DNA of 42,911 nucleotides. Origin: a virus (lineage: Duplodnaviria; Caudoviricetes). The notes beneath the pieces are model-generated. The model was not told where the DNA came from. It did not search any database and saw nothing but the letters and a program-made list of their open reading frames with translations. The translations under genes were made by a program, and so were the position numbers. Shown in pieces: positions 1-42,911 of this stretch (position 1 is its first letter; each line of letters begins with the position of its first letter). The stretch lies in the IMG/VR virus record IMGVR_UViG_3300037311_000166, positions 1-42,911 of that record. One strand, written 5' to 3'.

Positions 1-127
1 TGAAGGATAAGGAGGACAAGATGAAGTCGTTAGAAACAATGAAGGATAAGGAGGACAAGATGAAGTCGTTAGAAACAATGAAGGATAAGGAGGACAAGAT
101 GAAGTCGTTAGAAACAATGAAGGATAA
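1..127 (+). repeat. 39-bp tandem repeat (3 full copies plus a partial), continuing from the right end of the contig
   Basis: Unit TGAAGGATAAGGAGGACAAGATGAAGTCGTTAGAAACAA at 1, 40 and 79, partial at 118; each unit contains GGAGG followed by an ATG. Confidence 0.97.
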
Positions 128-563
128 ACTGTACCATATAGTTGATGGCCAGATAATTGAAGGCCCGAATAAGAAAATGAGCGGCGATTGCTCTGGGTTG
201 ACAGGTGATTGCACTGTGTTGGTTGGCAATGGCTCTGGGTTGACAGGTGATTGCACTAATCTTTTTGGTTCTTTGGACTTCATCCCAATGAACATGAGGG
301 AATCATTACCAAATTTAAGAGAATTGGGTTATGTGCTCAAGTTTAGAGCAGATTCAAGTTTAAGGGAGTGGGTTTGGGAAAACAAAACATGGTTAAAACG
401 CATGCGAATATATCAACCCGAAAAACAAACAATACAACTAGAAGAGAAAAAAACAATACAACTAGAAGAGAAACAAACAATACAACTAGAAGAGAAACAA
501 ACAATACAACTAGAAGAGAAAAAAACAATACAACTAGCGGAGAAAAATCAGGATCACTTTTAA
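21..563 (+). CDS. Repeat-rich hypothetical protein (true start probably 42802, across the circular junction)
   Basis: 13-aa, 7-aa (GDCSGLT) and 8-aa (EKQTIQLE) repeats; core is paralogous to 591..788. Confidence 0.8.
   Translation: MKSLETMKDKEDKMKSLETMKDKEDKMKSLETMKDKLYHIVDGQIIEGPNKKMSGDCSGLTGDCTVLVGNGSGLTGDCTNLFGSLDFIPMNMRESLPNLRELGYVLKFRADSSLREWVWENKTWLKRMRIYQPEKQTIQLEEKKTIQLEEKQTIQLEEKQTIQLEEKKTIQLAEKNQDHF
420..545 (+). repeat. 24-bp coding tandem repeat x5
   Basis: GARAAAMAAACAATACAACTAGAA at 420, 444, 468, 492 and 516 (last copy ends GCG). Confidence 0.95.
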
Positions 564-2702: not shown

Positions 2703-3045
2703 ACAATGGGATGTTGTCTCTTACGGACAAAACTTAGGAATAGTAACGCAAATATATTATGATGATTTGCTTAAAACAGAGTTGGCCTCAGTGTTTAGTC
2801 CAACAAATATACGGTTCATGGATTACAGAATCGATTCTTTAAAAAAAGAGCATGATAAAGTAGCCATAGCACCATCCATGGTCATGTCTCGCAGTAGCGC
2901 CACCGGAATTATACGCCGTGTTGTAATGACATCGCTATACACGTTTGAAGAATACCAGTTTGCGCGTGATAACTATTCGACAGAAGAAGTAACGTGGTCA
3001 TGGCCGTATAGTATTACAAGTCTGGTGATCGTTGATAAGACTTAA
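2689..3045 (+). CDS. Hypothetical protein
   Basis: 118-aa ORF overlapping the upstream stop within the operon. Confidence 0.7.
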   Translation: MSEIKQWDVVSYGQNLGIVTQIYYDDLLKTELASVFSPTNIRFMDYRIDSLKKEHDKVAIAPSMVMSRSSATGIIRRVVMTSLYTFEEYQFARDNYSTEEVTWSWPYSITSLVIVDKT

Positions 3046-3046
3046 C

Positions 3047-3063
3047 AACCCGCCCCGATGGGG
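3047..3063 (+). repeat. 17-bp direct repeat, left of the Tad1-like gene
   Basis: AACCCGCCCCGATGGGG; contains a CCCC-GAT-GGGG mini-hairpin. Confidence 0.85.
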
Positions 3064-3082
3064 CAAAACGAAAGGTAATAAT

Positions 3083-3403
3083 ATGTTACAAAAAGTAACA
3101 AGCACTTTTAAACACGACGACAATGGTAATCCAGCCGGCGGTAGTACTACTGGTACAGGGATTGATATTCAATGGCAAGACGGCCCTTTAGGCCCTCCAG
3201 AAAATAGACTTCCAGCTAATGGCGCATTTATAGAAGGAGTAATTCAAGCGGCAATTGAACGATTGGAGTTTTTCCAACATTCAAAATTCTCATGCCGCGA
3301 AAATGCAATTGCTTTAACGCATTTGGAGACAGCTTTATTGTGGCTACAGAAACGAACGATGGACAGAGAAATGCGCGGCGTTGAAGGGCAGCATAAGATT
3401 TAA
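3083..3403 (+). CDS. tad1: Tad1-like anti-Thoeris/anti-CBASS nucleotide-sponge protein
   Basis: IQWQDGP...NG...RLEFFQHSKFSCRENAIALTHLETALLWLQKRTMDREMRGVEG matches the Tad1 C-terminal signature as I recall it; start re-called after GAAAGGT. Confidence 0.75.
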   Translation: MLQKVTSTFKHDDNGNPAGGSTTGTGIDIQWQDGPLGPPENRLPANGAFIEGVIQAAIERLEFFQHSKFSCRENAIALTHLETALLWLQKRTMDREMRGVEGQHKI

Positions 3404-34693: not shown

Positions 34694-36301
34694 CTAAAAT
34701 CTCCTCTTCTCTTTGGCGAGCCTTACCCTGTCCGCATAAGATAAAAATCCGCCAGCTCTAACTTTCATTCCACGACCTTCCGGCTTTCTGGCCTTCAATC
34801 TCTCGGAAGGCGATAAAATCTTGTAGGCATCAACATTCTTTCTTGACTGCTGAACCCCTACCAACGCAACCGGAACATCAGGGGCTACGCCCTCAATGTA
34901 CCTGTCACAATCTATGCCATCATCCCACTTCTGGATCGGCTTTATGGCATCGCCAGACTTATCCTTCGGCCACGCATATCTCAACAACTCTTTGCGATAA
35001 CGTGAAACTTTATCCTTGAAAACATACTGCCTGGGCAACCCTGTCGCTTCGTTAACCCGATAAAGCTCATTTAACCGATCAATCCCTGGCATCAACCAAT
35101 CCTTCTTCGATGCGTTGAAGGGCAAGACATCGCCCCAATCATTCTCCGACAAAATCTTTATCATCTTTGACCTGAGATTCTCCCTTAGGTTGGCGTCAAG
35201 CTGGTTTAACGACGTGTCATTGACTGAACGTACCAAGGTTGCGCCATCTGCTATCAGCTTGTTCCGCATCTCAATTATCTCGTATGTGAATTCAGCTATG
35301 CCCTTCGGGCACCATAACTCACCGACAACAAACCTTTCCCCGTCGTTGATCCTGATCGCCTTCCATATCGCCACGTGGGGCTTGTTGGAATGAGGATCCA
35401 ACCCCTCATAAAGAAAGAACTCGCTGGTCAACGGAAAAGAATCAATGTCGGAAACCTTCGGCTTGTATTCATTGATAACCCTATCCCTTAACCTGCTCGG
35501 ATCCCCATGAATACGCGCATCACGCTCAGCGTCCGTCAACTCTTGCTCGTAAATCTCAATGTTCTTTTTTGGAAGCGTCTTGTTCTCATACGAAGAACCC
35601 TTGATCACCTTCACGTACGGCTTTCTTCCCTCCTCTGCCGGCTCAATCAAATCATCCAAAATCCACATCTGATCGTCGCTATCCTCAACGATCGTCGCCG
35701 CCATCGCTATTACCCCACCTCGATCAATGATCCCCCGAAAGTTGGCGACGTACACTTCTCGCTTCGGAGGCTCATCAAAAAGAGCGTAATCCAAATCCAT
35801 CGACTCAGACGCCTTCAGTTGCTGATTGTACGTGAGGATAAAGGTCTTCGACCCACACGCCCAGTTGATTGCCGTTATCTTCCCCTGATCCCTCGTAAAA
35901 GGATCCTTCGCATGCAACGCTGACTTTGGAACCCACTCTTCGATCTTCCGAAGCAAAGTGTGCTCGAAAACCTCATACGTATTACAATACAACCTGCCAA
36001 AATTTGGCACCTGCGTCCGTCGCTCAGGATGCGTTCCTGTCGCTAACCAATACAAATTTATCATCATGCAGGTCGTCTTCCCAAAACGATTGGCCGCCGA
36101 CAACAAGACAACCGTATGCGTTCCTATCGCCTTCTGAAAAGCTACCTGGCCAGGCGAAATGTTGGCCAAATAATGATCTACCTTGCCATCATCCGCTGCC
36201 TTCAAGGCCTTGGAAAGTAACTCCATGAACTCACGAAGCTCACGGTCACTCATCTTATCCAAAACCTGATTGGCCATCGGATCAGTCATCATCTTCCCCA
36301 T
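34694..36301 (-). CDS. terL: Terminase large subunit
   Basis: Walker A AANRFGKT, Walker B ALFDEPP, nuclease motifs GLDPH and DDGIDCDRY. Confidence 0.92.
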   Translation of the reverse strand: MGKMMTDPMANQVLDKMSDRELREFMELLSKALKAADDGKVDHYLANISPGQVAFQKAIGTHTVVLLSAANRFGKTTCMMINLYWLATGTHPERRTQVPNFGRLYCNTYEVFEHTLLRKIEEWVPKSALHAKDPFTRDQGKITAINWACGSKTFILTYNQQLKASESMDLDYALFDEPPKREVYVANFRGIIDRGGVIAMAATIVEDSDDQMWILDDLIEPAEEGRKPYVKVIKGSSYENKTLPKKNIEIYEQELTDAERDARIHGDPSRLRDRVINEYKPKVSDIDSFPLTSEFFLYEGLDPHSNKPHVAIWKAIRINDGERFVVGELWCPKGIAEFTYEIIEMRNKLIADGATLVRSVNDTSLNQLDANLRENLRSKMIKILSENDWGDVLPFNASKKDWLMPGIDRLNELYRVNEATGLPRQYVFKDKVSRYRKELLRYAWPKDKSGDAIKPIQKWDDGIDCDRYIEGVAPDVPVALVGVQQSRKNVDAYKILSPSERLKARKPEGRGMKVRAGGFLSYADRVRLAKEKRRF

Positions 36302-36803
36302 TCACAACTTCAGCTTCCATGACTGCCATCTCTTTACCCTTAATCGTTGACAAAGACTTGACGCCCTCAATCAATTTCATGGCGTTCGGATCCTTTGCGT
36401 ACAACTCCTTCATCATTGACCCGATCATCGCGTACATCTGTGACCGATCACTGACATCATCAAACTGAGTCCGAATCTCCTTGCGATCAATCGCTCCATA
36501 CCCAGCCTGGCCCGCAAGAAACTGCAATGCCTTTAACTTCGTGCTGTCTCCCTTGGCTCCGCCCTCGAAGGCAATCTTTGCAATCCCTAGCTGAACCTCA
36601 GGCATTATATTCTCTATCATCCCGTCCGTATCCCGACCCTCCAAAGACTTCTTTATCGCCTTCTTCCACTCAATCGGCGCCCCATCCCCATCATCAAGGG
36701 CTTCGCCCTTTACTAAACTGCTTAACTTGCCAATCTCCTCTTTGGCCTCAGTCCACTCCTTCTCATGCTTCTCCGTTATCTTGAACTTCTTTCTCCAGCT
36801 CAT
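36282..36803 (-). CDS. terS: Terminase small subunit (putative)
   Basis: Immediately upstream of TerL; KLKALQFL helix. Confidence 0.6.
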   Translation of the reverse strand: MSWRKKFKITEKHEKEWTEAKEEIGKLSSLVKGEALDDGDGAPIEWKKAIKKSLEGRDTDGMIENIMPEVQLGIAKIAFEGGAKGDSTKLKALQFLAGQAGYGAIDRKEIRTQFDDVSDRSQMYAMIGSMMKELYAKDPNAMKLIEGVKSLSTIKGKEMAVMEAEVVNGEDDD

Positions 36804-36811
36804 TCTTTTAC

Positions 36812-36839
36812 CTTATACGTTTAGATAAATTTTTGTCAA
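36812..36839 (-). promoter_or_regulatory. Sigma70-like promoter of the packaging/structural arm
   Basis: TTGACA-16nt-TATAAG ending 8 nt before the terS ATG. Confidence 0.5.
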
Positions 36840-36920
36840 TCAGTTGGTGAAGGATAACTCGTTGAAATTCAAGGGAGGCTTTAAAAAATGTTGACAAGTC
36901 GCTTGTCTGTCAGACTAGGA

Positions 36921-36936
36921 TGTTCCACGTGAAGAG
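36921..36936. promoter_or_regulatory. parS-like site
   Basis: TGTTCCACGTGAAGAG versus consensus TGTTNCACGTGAAACA (first 13 positions match). Confidence 0.4.
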
Positions 36937-37050
36937 GGGTGTGGGAGGCCCATCCAAAATTTTCGAGTCCGATCCAAGCGAGGTGGCACCTTTCGAGTTC
37001 CGCCAAGTCTTGCTAGGGCTTTTCGCGCACTTACAAGTTTTATAAAATTT

Positions 37051-37066
37051 TGGCATGGTTTTTGCT
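37051..37066 (+). promoter_or_regulatory. Sigma54 -24/-12 motif
   Basis: TGGCATGGTTTTTGCT. Confidence 0.7.
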
Positions 37067-37070
37067 ATTA

Positions 37071-37086
37071 TGCAAAAGACGTGCCA
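37071..37086 (-). promoter_or_regulatory. Sigma54 -24/-12 motif
   Basis: TGGCACGTCTTTTGCA on the - strand. Confidence 0.75.
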
Positions 37087-37146
37087 AACATTGCGAGAGC
37101 GTGGCGGAACGTGGCGGGGCCGGGCTATATATATTGAGCGCATTGC

Positions 37147-37196
37147 CCAAGTCCTGCCAAGTCCTGCCAAGTCCTGCCAAGTCCTGCCAAGTCTTG
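37147..37196 (+). repeat. 10-bp tandem repeat x5
   Basis: CCAAGTCCTG x4 plus CCAAGTCTTG; dispersed GCCAAGT at 37002, 37258 and 37714. Confidence 0.95.
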
Positions 37197-37457
37197 TCAC
37201 GCCCTTGATTGACCACAAAACTTTGACGCCAAATCCCGTCAAATTCCCACACGTTTTGCCAAGTCCTTGAAAAACAGAGAGAAAATTGAAAGGGCTTGGT
37301 GGGACGTGTCAAAATCTTGATAGTGCCCGATAGAATATGGTGGGAAATGTTGGGATGTTTGACGTTTTTTCAGCTCTTGTAATGTCGCATAACGATGAAA
37401 ATGGAATTTTGACGCTTTTTCGCGAAAATATTCAATCAGCGTTTTGGCAATATGTCC

Positions 37458-37473
37458 GGCAAAAACCGTGCCA
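37458..37473 (-). promoter_or_regulatory. Sigma54 -24/-12 motif
   Basis: TGGCACGGTTTTTGCC on the - strand. Confidence 0.7.
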
Positions 37474-37502
37474 GAATTGGAATTTTCTTTTTTTTGTCGC
37501 TT

Positions 37503-37518
37503 TGGCACGATTCTTGCA
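37503..37518 (+). promoter_or_regulatory. Sigma54 -24/-12 motif
   Basis: TGGCACGATTCTTGCA. Confidence 0.75.
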
Positions 37519-37601
37519 CGTGATTTTTGCCAAAAAGCATGACAAAAAATTGTCGGATGGAGGGAAAGAGTGATAGGGCGTGACGCTAAAACGGGTCTTG
37601 C

Positions 37602-37813
37602 TCGAGCTAAGTGCTTGTTTGATATTTTTTTTTTTTTTTTTTTTTTTTTAATTTTATGGTTCCGCAGCGACAAGCTCATAGGGGTGTCAAATATTTGACT
37701 ATAGGTAGCTATCGCCAAGTTTGGACCCCCTACCCCCCGCGTGTCCCCGCCAAAACCCCGAAAAGAAAAAAATAAAAAAAAAAAAAAAATATCAAACAAT
37801 AACTTACGCTCGA
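37602..37813. repeat. Large imperfect dyad with IHF-like sites and A/T tracts; candidate packaging/terminus site
   Basis: TCGAGC-TAAGTGCTTGTTTGATA-T25 ... A-tract-TATCAAACAATAACTTACGCTCGA, with nested inner symmetry. Confidence 0.75.
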
Positions 37814-38000
37814 TTTTAGTCCATATTTTTGACACGCTCTTTCACGCACCAAAAAAAACCTCACGTCCCGTCTATATATTATATAGCTATATAGACTAAC
37901 CGAAATTTGCCGCGTTTTTGCGCGCTCTGGCTTTTCCCCCCTTGTCCCTTCCGGCCCCTTCCACAACTCAGAAAAAAAATACAAAATACAAAAAAAACTA

Positions 38001-38028
38001 TTGATAATATTAATTGATAAAATATAAT
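38001..38028 (+). promoter_or_regulatory. Early sigma70 promoter
   Basis: TTGATA-16nt-TATAAT with an upstream A-rich UP-like tract. Confidence 0.65.
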
Positions 38029-38575: not shown

Positions 38576-38998
38576 ATGGAACTTTTAATCTCTGAAAATA
38601 TCGAAAATTTGGATCAATTTCTATCCCGTCCCGAAAACAAGAAACCCGATGGATCAAAAAAATTCGAGGTGCCACCAAACCTGCCGACCGGGCATGGTTT
38701 TTTAGGTCTCGTGTACAATCCCTCAACCAAAGCCGCGTATAGCGGAAAACAAGTCCAGTTCTTGAGCCTGCTTTGCCAAGCCGCCGGCCTATGCGGACAG
38801 TTTGCTGGATACCGCCAATGGAATGAGCTTGGGCGTGTGGTTAAGAAGGGTCAAAAAGCAGTCCGGATCTTCGTTCCAAAATTCAAAAAATCAGAGGATG
38901 GGCAAGAAGCAGTCTATTTTCGGATGGTAACCGTGTTTGCTTTTGAGCAAACAGAGCCGCTTCCTGAAGCCTCAGAAGGTGAGGTTGCCAATGGATGA
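38576..38998 (+). CDS. ArdC-like N-terminal ssDNA-binding (antirestriction) domain protein
   Basis: NPSTKAAYSG...FAGYRQWNELGRVVKKGQKA...VFAFEQT. Confidence 0.8.
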   Translation: MELLISENIENLDQFLSRPENKKPDGSKKFEVPPNLPTGHGFLGLVYNPSTKAAYSGKQVQFLSLLCQAAGLCGQFAGYRQWNELGRVVKKGQKAVRIFVPKFKKSEDGQEAVYFRMVTVFAFEQTEPLPEASEGEVANG

Positions 38999-39921: not shown

Positions 39922-40068
39922 ATGAATTTAAACTTGATAGTTTTGCGGTCCCTTCTTTTGTTAGCTCGGGAGGCGCTTTTGCATCCAGGCGATTTGAGCG
40001 AGGCCGGAAGGCGTTTGCTTATTGAAGAGATTGAGGAATGCGCGATGCAGATGGGATGGAAAAAATGA
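39922..40068 (+). CDS. 48-aa hypothetical protein (not in the ORF track)
   Basis: AAGGGA RBS; stop overlaps the next ATG (ATGA). Confidence 0.55.
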   Translation: MNLNLIVLRSLLLLAREALLHPGDLSEAGRRLLIEEIEECAMQMGWKK

Positions 40069-40643
40069 AACCTTCAACGATTGTACCGATTATTGAAACT
40101 TCCGAAATGGGAAGATTTTTAAACGTAGTTTCGCCTGGCAAGCTCGGGCATGGTGACGAGTCAAAGACTCCCGCGCTTGCGGTTCAGGAGTTCTATGATG
40201 AGAATGAATGGGAGATCCGGCGCCATTTATGCTACAGGCTGGAGATGCTCTTTTCTGATCAACCTCTTGAGATGAGAGCCCGCTATTACACGTTGCGGAC
40301 CGGCCGAGCGATTCCGAACGTCAAGACGATCGATTATTTTTGCAGGTTGTTCCAAGTCGACCCAGATTGGCTGGTTTTCGGCTACCAAGACGGCGCTCAG
40401 ATTGACGACCCCATCGAGTTCACCCCACCGCCTACCACGGTTTGGCCACGTCCTCTCAGGGTGTTTATGCGCGACAATGGACTAAGGTTTATTGACATGT
40501 CCAGGCTGACCGGCCTGCACTATTCGAACTTTTCCAGCATTTTTTCAGCAGTCGAGAATCCGAAGGGTTCATTTCGGACGGTGTGGACATTGTCAAAATG
40601 CCTCAACCTAACATTGAAGAAGTTATTTTATGACGTTGATTGA
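40065..40643 (+). CDS. Tandem XRE/Cro-like HTH transcription regulator
   Basis: G...PNVKTI..FC..F.V.PDWLVFG and a second LRVFM...MSRLTGL...LSKCL.L....LF domain. Confidence 0.7.
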   Translation: MKPSTIVPIIETSEMGRFLNVVSPGKLGHGDESKTPALAVQEFYDENEWEIRRHLCYRLEMLFSDQPLEMRARYYTLRTGRAIPNVKTIDYFCRLFQVDPDWLVFGYQDGAQIDDPIEFTPPPTTVWPRPLRVFMRDNGLRFIDMSRLTGLHYSNFSSIFSAVENPKGSFRTVWTLSKCLNLTLKKLFYDVD

Positions 40644-42595: not shown

Positions 42596-42805
42596 ATGAC
42601 TTACGGTTTTGAATCGCTAATCTGCACCGCCCCGAACGAATGCCAGAAGCTCGGCGAGATTGTCGTCTCGTGTGTGATGTCCAGCTGGCAATTTTGGCTT
42701 GCGATTGTCGGCGTGTCGCTTGTTATGTCGATACTAACGAGGCCGAGGGTTCGTGTGAATGTTAAAGGCGTTGGTAAGCAGGTGAGGATAAGGAGGACAA
42801 GATGA
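42596..42805 (+). CDS. Small membrane protein
   Basis: One TM helix followed by an Arg-rich tail. Confidence 0.65.
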   Translation: MTYGFESLICTAPNECQKLGEIVVSCVMSSWQFWLAIVGVSLVMSILTRPRVRVNVKGVGKQVRIRRTR

Positions 42806-42911
42806 AGTCGTTAGAAACAATGAAGGATAAGGAGGACAAGATGAAGTCGTTAGAAACAATGAAGGATAAGGAGGACAAGATGAAGTCGTTAGAAACAATG
42901 AAGGATAAGGA
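42783..42911 (+). repeat. 39-bp tandem array and terminal overlap with 1-91 (circular closure)
   Basis: 42821-42911 is identical to 1-91. Confidence 0.95.

Follow-up and report, generated by a model that had tools for sequence, protein, structure and literature searches.

The four sigma-54-type boxes in the non-coding gap of an uncultured phage quite possibly form a silent, phased array on which host sigma-54 RNA polymerase would be parked near the genome end, occluding the DNA there and titrating the factor. The parts of this reading differ in strength: host sigma-54 very probably binds the boxes; given binding, the boxes are probably mostly silent; and, for what then remains, occlusion and titration can be put forward with considerable confidence as the selected job.

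Phage genome and non-coding gap

The window (the whole stretch of 42,911 nucleotides that was analysed) is one circular virus record from one freshwater metagenome run, with an end overlap that falls in a 39-bp repeat and a CheckV completeness of 42. This coding tandem repeat (window positions 1-130 and 42785-42911) constitutes the contig end overlap; the number of copies is uncertain, and the repeat may contain the start of the gene at 21-563. The phage is podovirus-like and encodes an SU10-type portal, a Mu gpT-like capsid, terL, an SNF2 helicase and a primase, together with an XRE regulator (40038-40643). An Acb2/Tad1-like protein (hairpin domain, below the cut-off) and an ArdC N-domain protein, at 3032-3403 and 38576-38998, are possible anti-defence genes. 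Searches for the host with the endolysin and the capsid gave matches that were all below 60% identity, to phages of mixed hosts.

Late genes are on the minus strand, from 36803 downwards, and early genes on the plus strand, from 38204. The terminase operon (late) is separated from the early genes by a 1.4-kb non-coding gap, in which all four boxes lie (Table 1). The cumulative GC skew has its minimum at 37-39 kb, coinciding with the coding-strand switch.

Table 1. Features of the gap and its borders (window coordinates)
Feature	Position	Strand	Remark
Probable terminase small subunit (terS-like), first late-operon gene	36282..36803	-	Named by its position before terL; no family match
Sigma-70-type promoter of the terS-like gene, TTGACA-18-TAAGGT	36810..36839	-	By eye; not in the promoter-scan listing
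parS-like palindrome	36921..36936		3 mismatches to the consensus used; 3 of 200 shuffles
Box 1, TGGCATG-N4-TTGC, -24/-12 type	37051..37065	+	Left half of the face-to-face pair
Spacer between the two -12 elements, A/T, 6 bp (TATTAT)	37066..37071		Family: 3-7 bp, 73% A+T
Box 2	37072..37086	-	Right half of the face-to-face pair; predicted +1 near 37060
Tandem repeat, 10-bp unit, TTGGCA on the minus strand	37147..37195	+	Depth 179; probably collapsed or variable
Sole exact IHF-consensus site	37310..37322	-	Between the two pairs; 12 one-mismatch sites more, 36834 to 38006
Box 3	37459..37473	-	Left half of the back-to-back pair
Box 4	37503..37517	+	Right half of the back-to-back pair; its 29-bp gap lies in the third phased peak (24-30 bp)
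Long inverted repeat of poly-T and poly-A tracts	37608..37806
Near-consensus sigma-70 promoter (11/12) towards the early genes	38001..38028	+	Promoter scan

Sigma-54-type boxes

The pattern TGGCAY-N5-TTGC occurs exactly four times in the window, every time in the gap, against 0.24 expected; four matches were reached in none of 100 shuffles. For the gap alone (1,400 bp), the shuffle mean was 0.005 boxes and none of 200 shuffles reached four. All four boxes match the sigma-54 consensus YTGGCAYR-N4-TTGCW (GG at -24, GC at -12, 10 bp between) and, in sequence only, belong among sigma-54 promoters. The preliminary description had listed these four motifs, which hold up against shuffles, with both minus-strand boxes starting one base later than it placed them. 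Its layout of one face-to-face and one back-to-back pair is retained; the face-to-face gap is 6 bp, and the 4 bp originally given would require the W after each GC to be taken as part of the box.

A domain search of the phage genome found neither a sigma-54 activator (PF00158) nor a sigma-54 DNA-binding domain (PF04552), as expected from the earlier statement that the phage has no enhancer-binding protein. The boxes had also been said to have no credible gene directly downstream, which holds only in part. None of the six ORFs in the gap matches a PHROG, but box 2 is directed at the terS-like gene, with 257 nt from the predicted +1 to the ATG.

Other features of the gap

IHF-like sites were scanned with WATCAA-N4-TTR, which we take to be the consensus. 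At one mismatch or fewer, the gap holds 13 sites against 2.5 expected (0 of 200 shuffles), and one exact site (as many in 22 of 200 shuffles). The interspersed IHF-like sites noted before are thereby borne out in number, the one singled out near 37260 being a one-mismatch match only. Exact sites, all of them predicted, are found at 0.26 per kb near pairs and 0.08 per kb away from them.

The parS scan used a 16-bp palindrome, TGTTYCACGTGRAACA, presumed here to be the consensus. The parS-like site suggested previously was located as one palindrome, with three mismatches; parS-type palindromes are present at only 4 of 76 pair loci. Closer matches lie near terL in the relatives L407, L412 and L413 (62-66 nt before the terL match), and such palindromes are also seen in L418 and SYP (about 292-308 and 965-980), so that in phages that appear to be lytic they recur around the terminase or the genome end.

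The read depth of the 10-bp tandem repeat suggests more copies than were assembled. A unitig at 37164..37611, which contains the back-to-back pair, has a depth of 49.5 against 31.3 on either flank (one run, contigs only); from this one depth figure, it is possibly a terminal repeat or packaging start. Short TG(G/A)C(A/G) words are enriched in the gap (25 per kb vs 9.6). The -10 element of the terS promoter is weak and ends 6 nt before the ATG; judged from the sequence, the late operon may begin with a leaderless mRNA. A similar terS promoter was found in three of nine relatives by pattern and in L418 by eye (examples L403, L405, L407 and L418).

Occurrence in viral and bacterial collections

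The face-to-face pattern was found at 125 or more loci of IMG/VR (about 750 stretches by estimate, against one for a complemented control pattern), and 114 of the 125 loci listed were of phage type. For the GTDB genomes (596 billion bases), about 180 stretches were estimated and at least 148 loci found; those 148 listed included 89 with a Leptospira-type repeat, 24 near-perfect palindromes and 16 of phage type. Back-to-back pairs (about 550) and tandem pairs (about 1200) are also abundant by estimate, which makes the single box the basic unit.

Box carriers are phages of 36-480 kb, plus a locus beside an inovirus-type gene. Three of the ten non-Leptospira GTDB loci scanned adjoin phage genes: terS (L196), scaffold and replication genes (L202) and an inovirus pI/Zot-like gene (L203). 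The last, a phage-type face-to-face pair, is on a Burkholderiaceae assembly contig, and filamentous phages may carry the element. The 147 nearest-ORF proteins around 80 pair loci were mostly without a family, and five were terminase subunits. With the back-to-back pair of the window, blastn gave chance-level matches only, and with the pair of L117 partial matches only.

The Leptospira loci fit the search pattern and were rejected as sigma-54 pairs: the match is coincidental, with a pyrimidine at position 7 and, in the one unit read, a repeat period of about 1 kb and attC-type ends, recognised by what we assume to be the attC core motifs. On short contigs from a number of Leptospira assemblies, these loci (L132-L278) show the attC-like repeat at intervals of about 1 kb, as large integron cassette arrays.

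Geometry and helical phasing

Geometry statistics were calculated after similar loci had been clustered, a step that removes close copies and not all kinship. The face-to-face spacer is 3-7 bp long in 87 of 94 clusters and 73% A+T; under a stricter pattern, a spacer of 0-2 bp was found in one stretch of the collection. Back-to-back gaps (81 clusters) fall at 5-10 bp (32), 14-21 bp (30) and 24-30 bp (19), with none at 0-4, 11-13 or 22-23 bp, and are phased at 10.5 bp (R=0.50; none of 5000 uniform draws as high). Tandem distances (80 clusters) fall at 24-29 bp (36), 33-39 bp (24) and 40-45 bp (14), with none at 19-23 or 30-32 bp; phasing was tested in 74 of these clusters, six at 17-18 bp being left out, and gave R=0.42 (0 of 5000 uniform draws). 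The 6-bp and 29-bp gaps of the window agree with the family pattern. Helical phasing suggests that several proteins are bound simultaneously on double-stranded DNA. In the 94 face-to-face clusters, the half-site combination CA x TG was seen at twice expectation and TG x TG almost never (one cluster).

Position near the terminase and in relatives

In 22 of 24 records, terL has the face-to-face pair on its upstream side; the distance is at most 2.1 kb in nine and at most 12 kb in 21. These records derive from the 26 of 43 with a Terminase_6N match, after three near-identical ones had been merged and the 17 without a match left out; two of the distances use weak matches at contig ends. Flanking ORFs, by crude calls, are divergent at 32 of 67 pair loci.

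Relatives of the phage's own terL were sought in IMG/VR by a single-protein search, which found none, and by an alignment search, which gave 26 loci. The exact box is present in 4 of 23 terL-relative records and the opposed pair in none, all records being fragments (9-66% complete). In these fragmentary records, the array is not fixed in the phage's own lineage. Upstream of terL in these relatives, one-mismatch boxes number 12 in 39 kb, against six in 140 kb on the downstream side, a 7-fold higher density; 8 of the 12 face away from the gene. At 13 of the 23 loci scored, the contig begins less than 2 kb upstream of the terL match, which points to a genome end or an assembly-breaking repeat there.

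Cultured Pseudomonas phages

A blastn search with the face-to-face pair led to Pseudomonas phage SYP, a region of which recurs in 188 Pseudomonas phage records, three of them inspected. The TGGCA, the TGC and the AATT spacer are invariant across PAK_P1, SYP and phiPMW, and the interior varies. In PAK_P1, the genes on either side of the exact face-to-face pair (55588-55621) run in the same direction, with a sigma-70-type promoter following the pair; two boxes of this phage fall within an annotated CDS. In SYP, the box is repeated at both record ends, which implies a 351-bp terminal repeat, and four further boxes lie within 1.3 kb. After the PAK_P1 pair, a conserved non-coding stretch of ~60 nt (about 55622-55690) is shared with SYP and phiPMW, and in all three phages a reversed TTGACA stands about 10 nt before the pair.

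In PAK_P3, exact boxes occur at two positions, 50798(-) and 50946(+), which are 133 bp apart and do not form a face-to-face pair. The ONT-cappable-seq table of PMC10914365, for one medium, lists no start between 48439 and 51049, and neither TGGCAC nor TGGCAT occurs in the PAK_P3 upstream sequences of that table. This silence is suggestive at most, because it concerns one medium and boxes that are not face-to-face, and host sigma-54 promoters are mostly silent too. The exact box is absent from LUZ24, 14-1, LUZ19 and phiKZ.

Candidate reader of the boxes

At the unfixed positions of 300 phage half-sites, Y precedes the box at a frequency of 0.74, R occupies position 7 at 0.97 and W follows the GC at 0.84, which is the sigma-54 pattern. 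By eye, the half-sites resemble the ChIP-mapped E. coli sigma-54 sites listed in Table 1 of PMC4591121. No sigma-54 or activator was found in 47 pair-bearing records (the longer contigs among the first 80 loci, ten of them at least 90% complete), and no homologue of the TerS-like or XRE protein of the window in 43. The TerS search recovered all four of four terL relatives used as a positive control, and the XRE search was run without one. Since the pair-bearing records are without sigma-54, an activator, this TerS-like protein and this XRE protein, the reader is likely a host protein. Cultured carriers are Pseudomonas phages, and PMC5626770 describes the RpoN of this genus.

Proposed parking of host sigma-54 polymerase

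In the proposed mechanism, host sigma-54 RNA polymerase would sit on the boxes as inactive closed complexes, the array being helically phased, probably silent and beside a likely genome end. Because the sigma-54 holoenzyme binds without an activator, the DNA would be loaded at once on cell entry. Several complexes would then be bound together at fixed faces of the helix, next to the IHF-like and parS-like sites, and the parked enzyme would shield the terminal region from sigma-70 transcription, blocking and sequestering without initiation. Four sites per entering genome cannot titrate much; after many genome copies, sigma-54 would be drawn from host sigma-54 promoters, pspA and rtcB for example. 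Of the two options in the preliminary description, the one that gains support here is the landing pad that takes up a host protein without transcription, in so far as the boxes occur without this TerS or XRE protein and without a phage sigma-54 or activator, in arrays that are phased.

In the E. coli data presented in PMC4591121, most sigma-54 binding is by inactive holoenzyme, and most host sigma-54 promoters are silent in rich medium. Single intragenic sigma-54 sites in the same data do not act as roadblocks, which disfavours simple insulation. A broader version of the proposal is conceivable, if doubtful: diverse lytic phages may coat their genome ends with idle host sigma-54 polymerase as a structural protein, the arrays capping or insulating the end and soaking up sigma-54, and the face-to-face pair opening one joint bubble that would serve replication or packaging.

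Relation to known systems

Host RpoN -24/-12 promoters, as represented by E. coli glnA, pspA, pspG, rtcB and hypA in Table 1 of PMC4591121, share with the phage boxes the box itself, GG-N10-GC, the flanking Y and W and nearby IHF-like sites. They are single, with a gene mostly within about 100 nt and a cognate activator, whereas the phage boxes are paired and phased, with no activator in the genome, and the gene closest to them is preceded by a sigma-70-type promoter of its own. The silent sigma-54 sites that PMC4591121 reports for E. coli are alike in that inactive holoenzyme stands on a consensus box with little or no RNA (for the phage, binding is predicted). They differ in being scattered, single, mostly intragenic and weaker, where those of the phage are almost perfect matches, occur in clusters and have a spacing under selection. 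The RpoN* molecular roadblock, as outlined in PMC5626770, is comparable in that occupied -24/-12 sites alter the RpoN regulon; there, an engineered protein blocks host sites, whereas here the phage DNA would supply the sites.

No description of phage sigma-54 boxes in pairs or arrays came up in the literature search, most subscription papers being outside its reach. The only phage sigma-54 promoter claim found in print, within the searchable part of that literature, is the 'Sigma54' promoter P015 of Pseudomonas phage YuA (PMC10914365). It was rejected as a precedent: the 50-nt upstream sequence given there has no -24/-12 box, the annotated -24/-12 promoter in NC_010116 (38392-38570) reads TTGACC-17-TACAAT and is probably a sigma-70 promoter, and YuA has no exact box. 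The SrpA palindrome of phage K5 was also set aside, the sequence given in PMC5945682 being different from the boxes.

If parking is true, many phages would exploit the distinctive stable binding of sigma-54 without firing, by means of non-coding DNA alone. Silent sigma-54 sites would have a selected function, and a DNA-decoy route would be added to host takeover. A structural use, if true, would be a non-transcriptional role of a sigma factor, encoded purely in DNA.

Alternative explanations

Activation of the boxes by a host enhancer-binding protein under some host state, which would make them genuine sigma-54 promoters and the face-to-face pair a bidirectional one, is rather unlikely. The geometry would suit this, as the predicted starts cross (37077 on the plus strand, 37060 on the minus strand), so that the transcripts would diverge, one of them towards terS. 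The excess of IHF-like sites, the A/T-rich spacer, the divergent flanks at 32 of 67 loci and the normal silence of sigma-54 promoters in rich medium are in keeping with it. Bidirectional sigma-70 promoters, reportedly described by Warman and colleagues in 2021, have two opposed elements that share one melting region and yield divergent transcripts; sigma-54, by contrast, requires an ATP-driven activator, and firing of the pair is hypothetical. Against promoters stand the sigma-70-type promoter that terS has of its own here and in three of nine relatives, the direction of the boxes upstream of related terL genes (8 of 12 away), the co-directional genes around the PAK_P1 pair with a sigma-70-type promoter following it, the absence of promoter logic in tandem arrays at 25-29 bp and back-to-back arrays at 5-10 bp, and the lack of a mapped start at the PAK_P3 boxes. 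The idea that late transcription is wired to a host activator, the other option put forward initially, is weakened by the terS promoter, the orientation of the boxes and the PAK_P3 starts.

It is improbable that the face-to-face pair is a DNA-opening device, in which sigma-54 on both halves would unwind the DNA directly behind each GC and the two openings would merge in the A/T spacer, as an entry site for enzymes of replication or packaging. The spacer limits are sharp (3-7 bp, 73% A+T), the pair is upstream of terL with a possible terminal repeat adjoining, the skew minimum is at 37-39 kb, and closed complexes unwind at -12/-11 according to bioRxiv 10.64898/2026.10.06.757011. However, single and tandem boxes outnumber face-to-face pairs, the turn in skew is also the coding-strand switch, and the pair is missing in the terL relatives.

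Were the boxes operators of TerS or of the phage's XRE regulator, their likeness to sigma-54 sites would be incidental. They sit where TerS sites are expected, in a gap dense in the shorter TG(G/A)C(A/G) words, but neither protein has a homologue in the 43 pair-bearing records, and the TerS-bearing terL relatives are mostly without boxes. The same box is found in phages of 36-480 kb and beside an inovirus-type gene, and variable spacing is ill-suited to one dimer. Binding by TerS or the XRE regulator, named at the outset as what would overturn the sigma-54 reading, finds no support in these comparisons, and the operator reading is very improbable.

Selection of opposed pairs as hairpins of RNA or single-strand DNA is highly improbable. 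The first pair of the window does form a stem of 16 pairs (z -4.6), spacers shorter than 3 nt hardly occur, and half combinations of the CA x TG type, able to form wobble pairs on one strand, number 24 against 11.4 expected. Over the 94 clusters, however, real pairs gain nothing over re-paired halves (RNA -18.5 vs -18.7, DNA -10.0 vs -10.3 kcal/mol) and have fewer internal Watson-Crick matches (1.87 vs 2.23). On these two comparisons, the hairpin reading fails across the family. Tandem boxes, which are unable to pair, are more frequent, and the second pair of the window has no fold (z -0.7). Rfam gave eight matches, none at the family threshold.

That the boxes are chance or neutral sequence is scarcely credible: the pattern was picked after the sequence had been seen and is mostly missing from terL relatives, but about 750 stretches stand against one for the control pattern, and the boxes are helically phased and kept across three Pseudomonas phage genomes.
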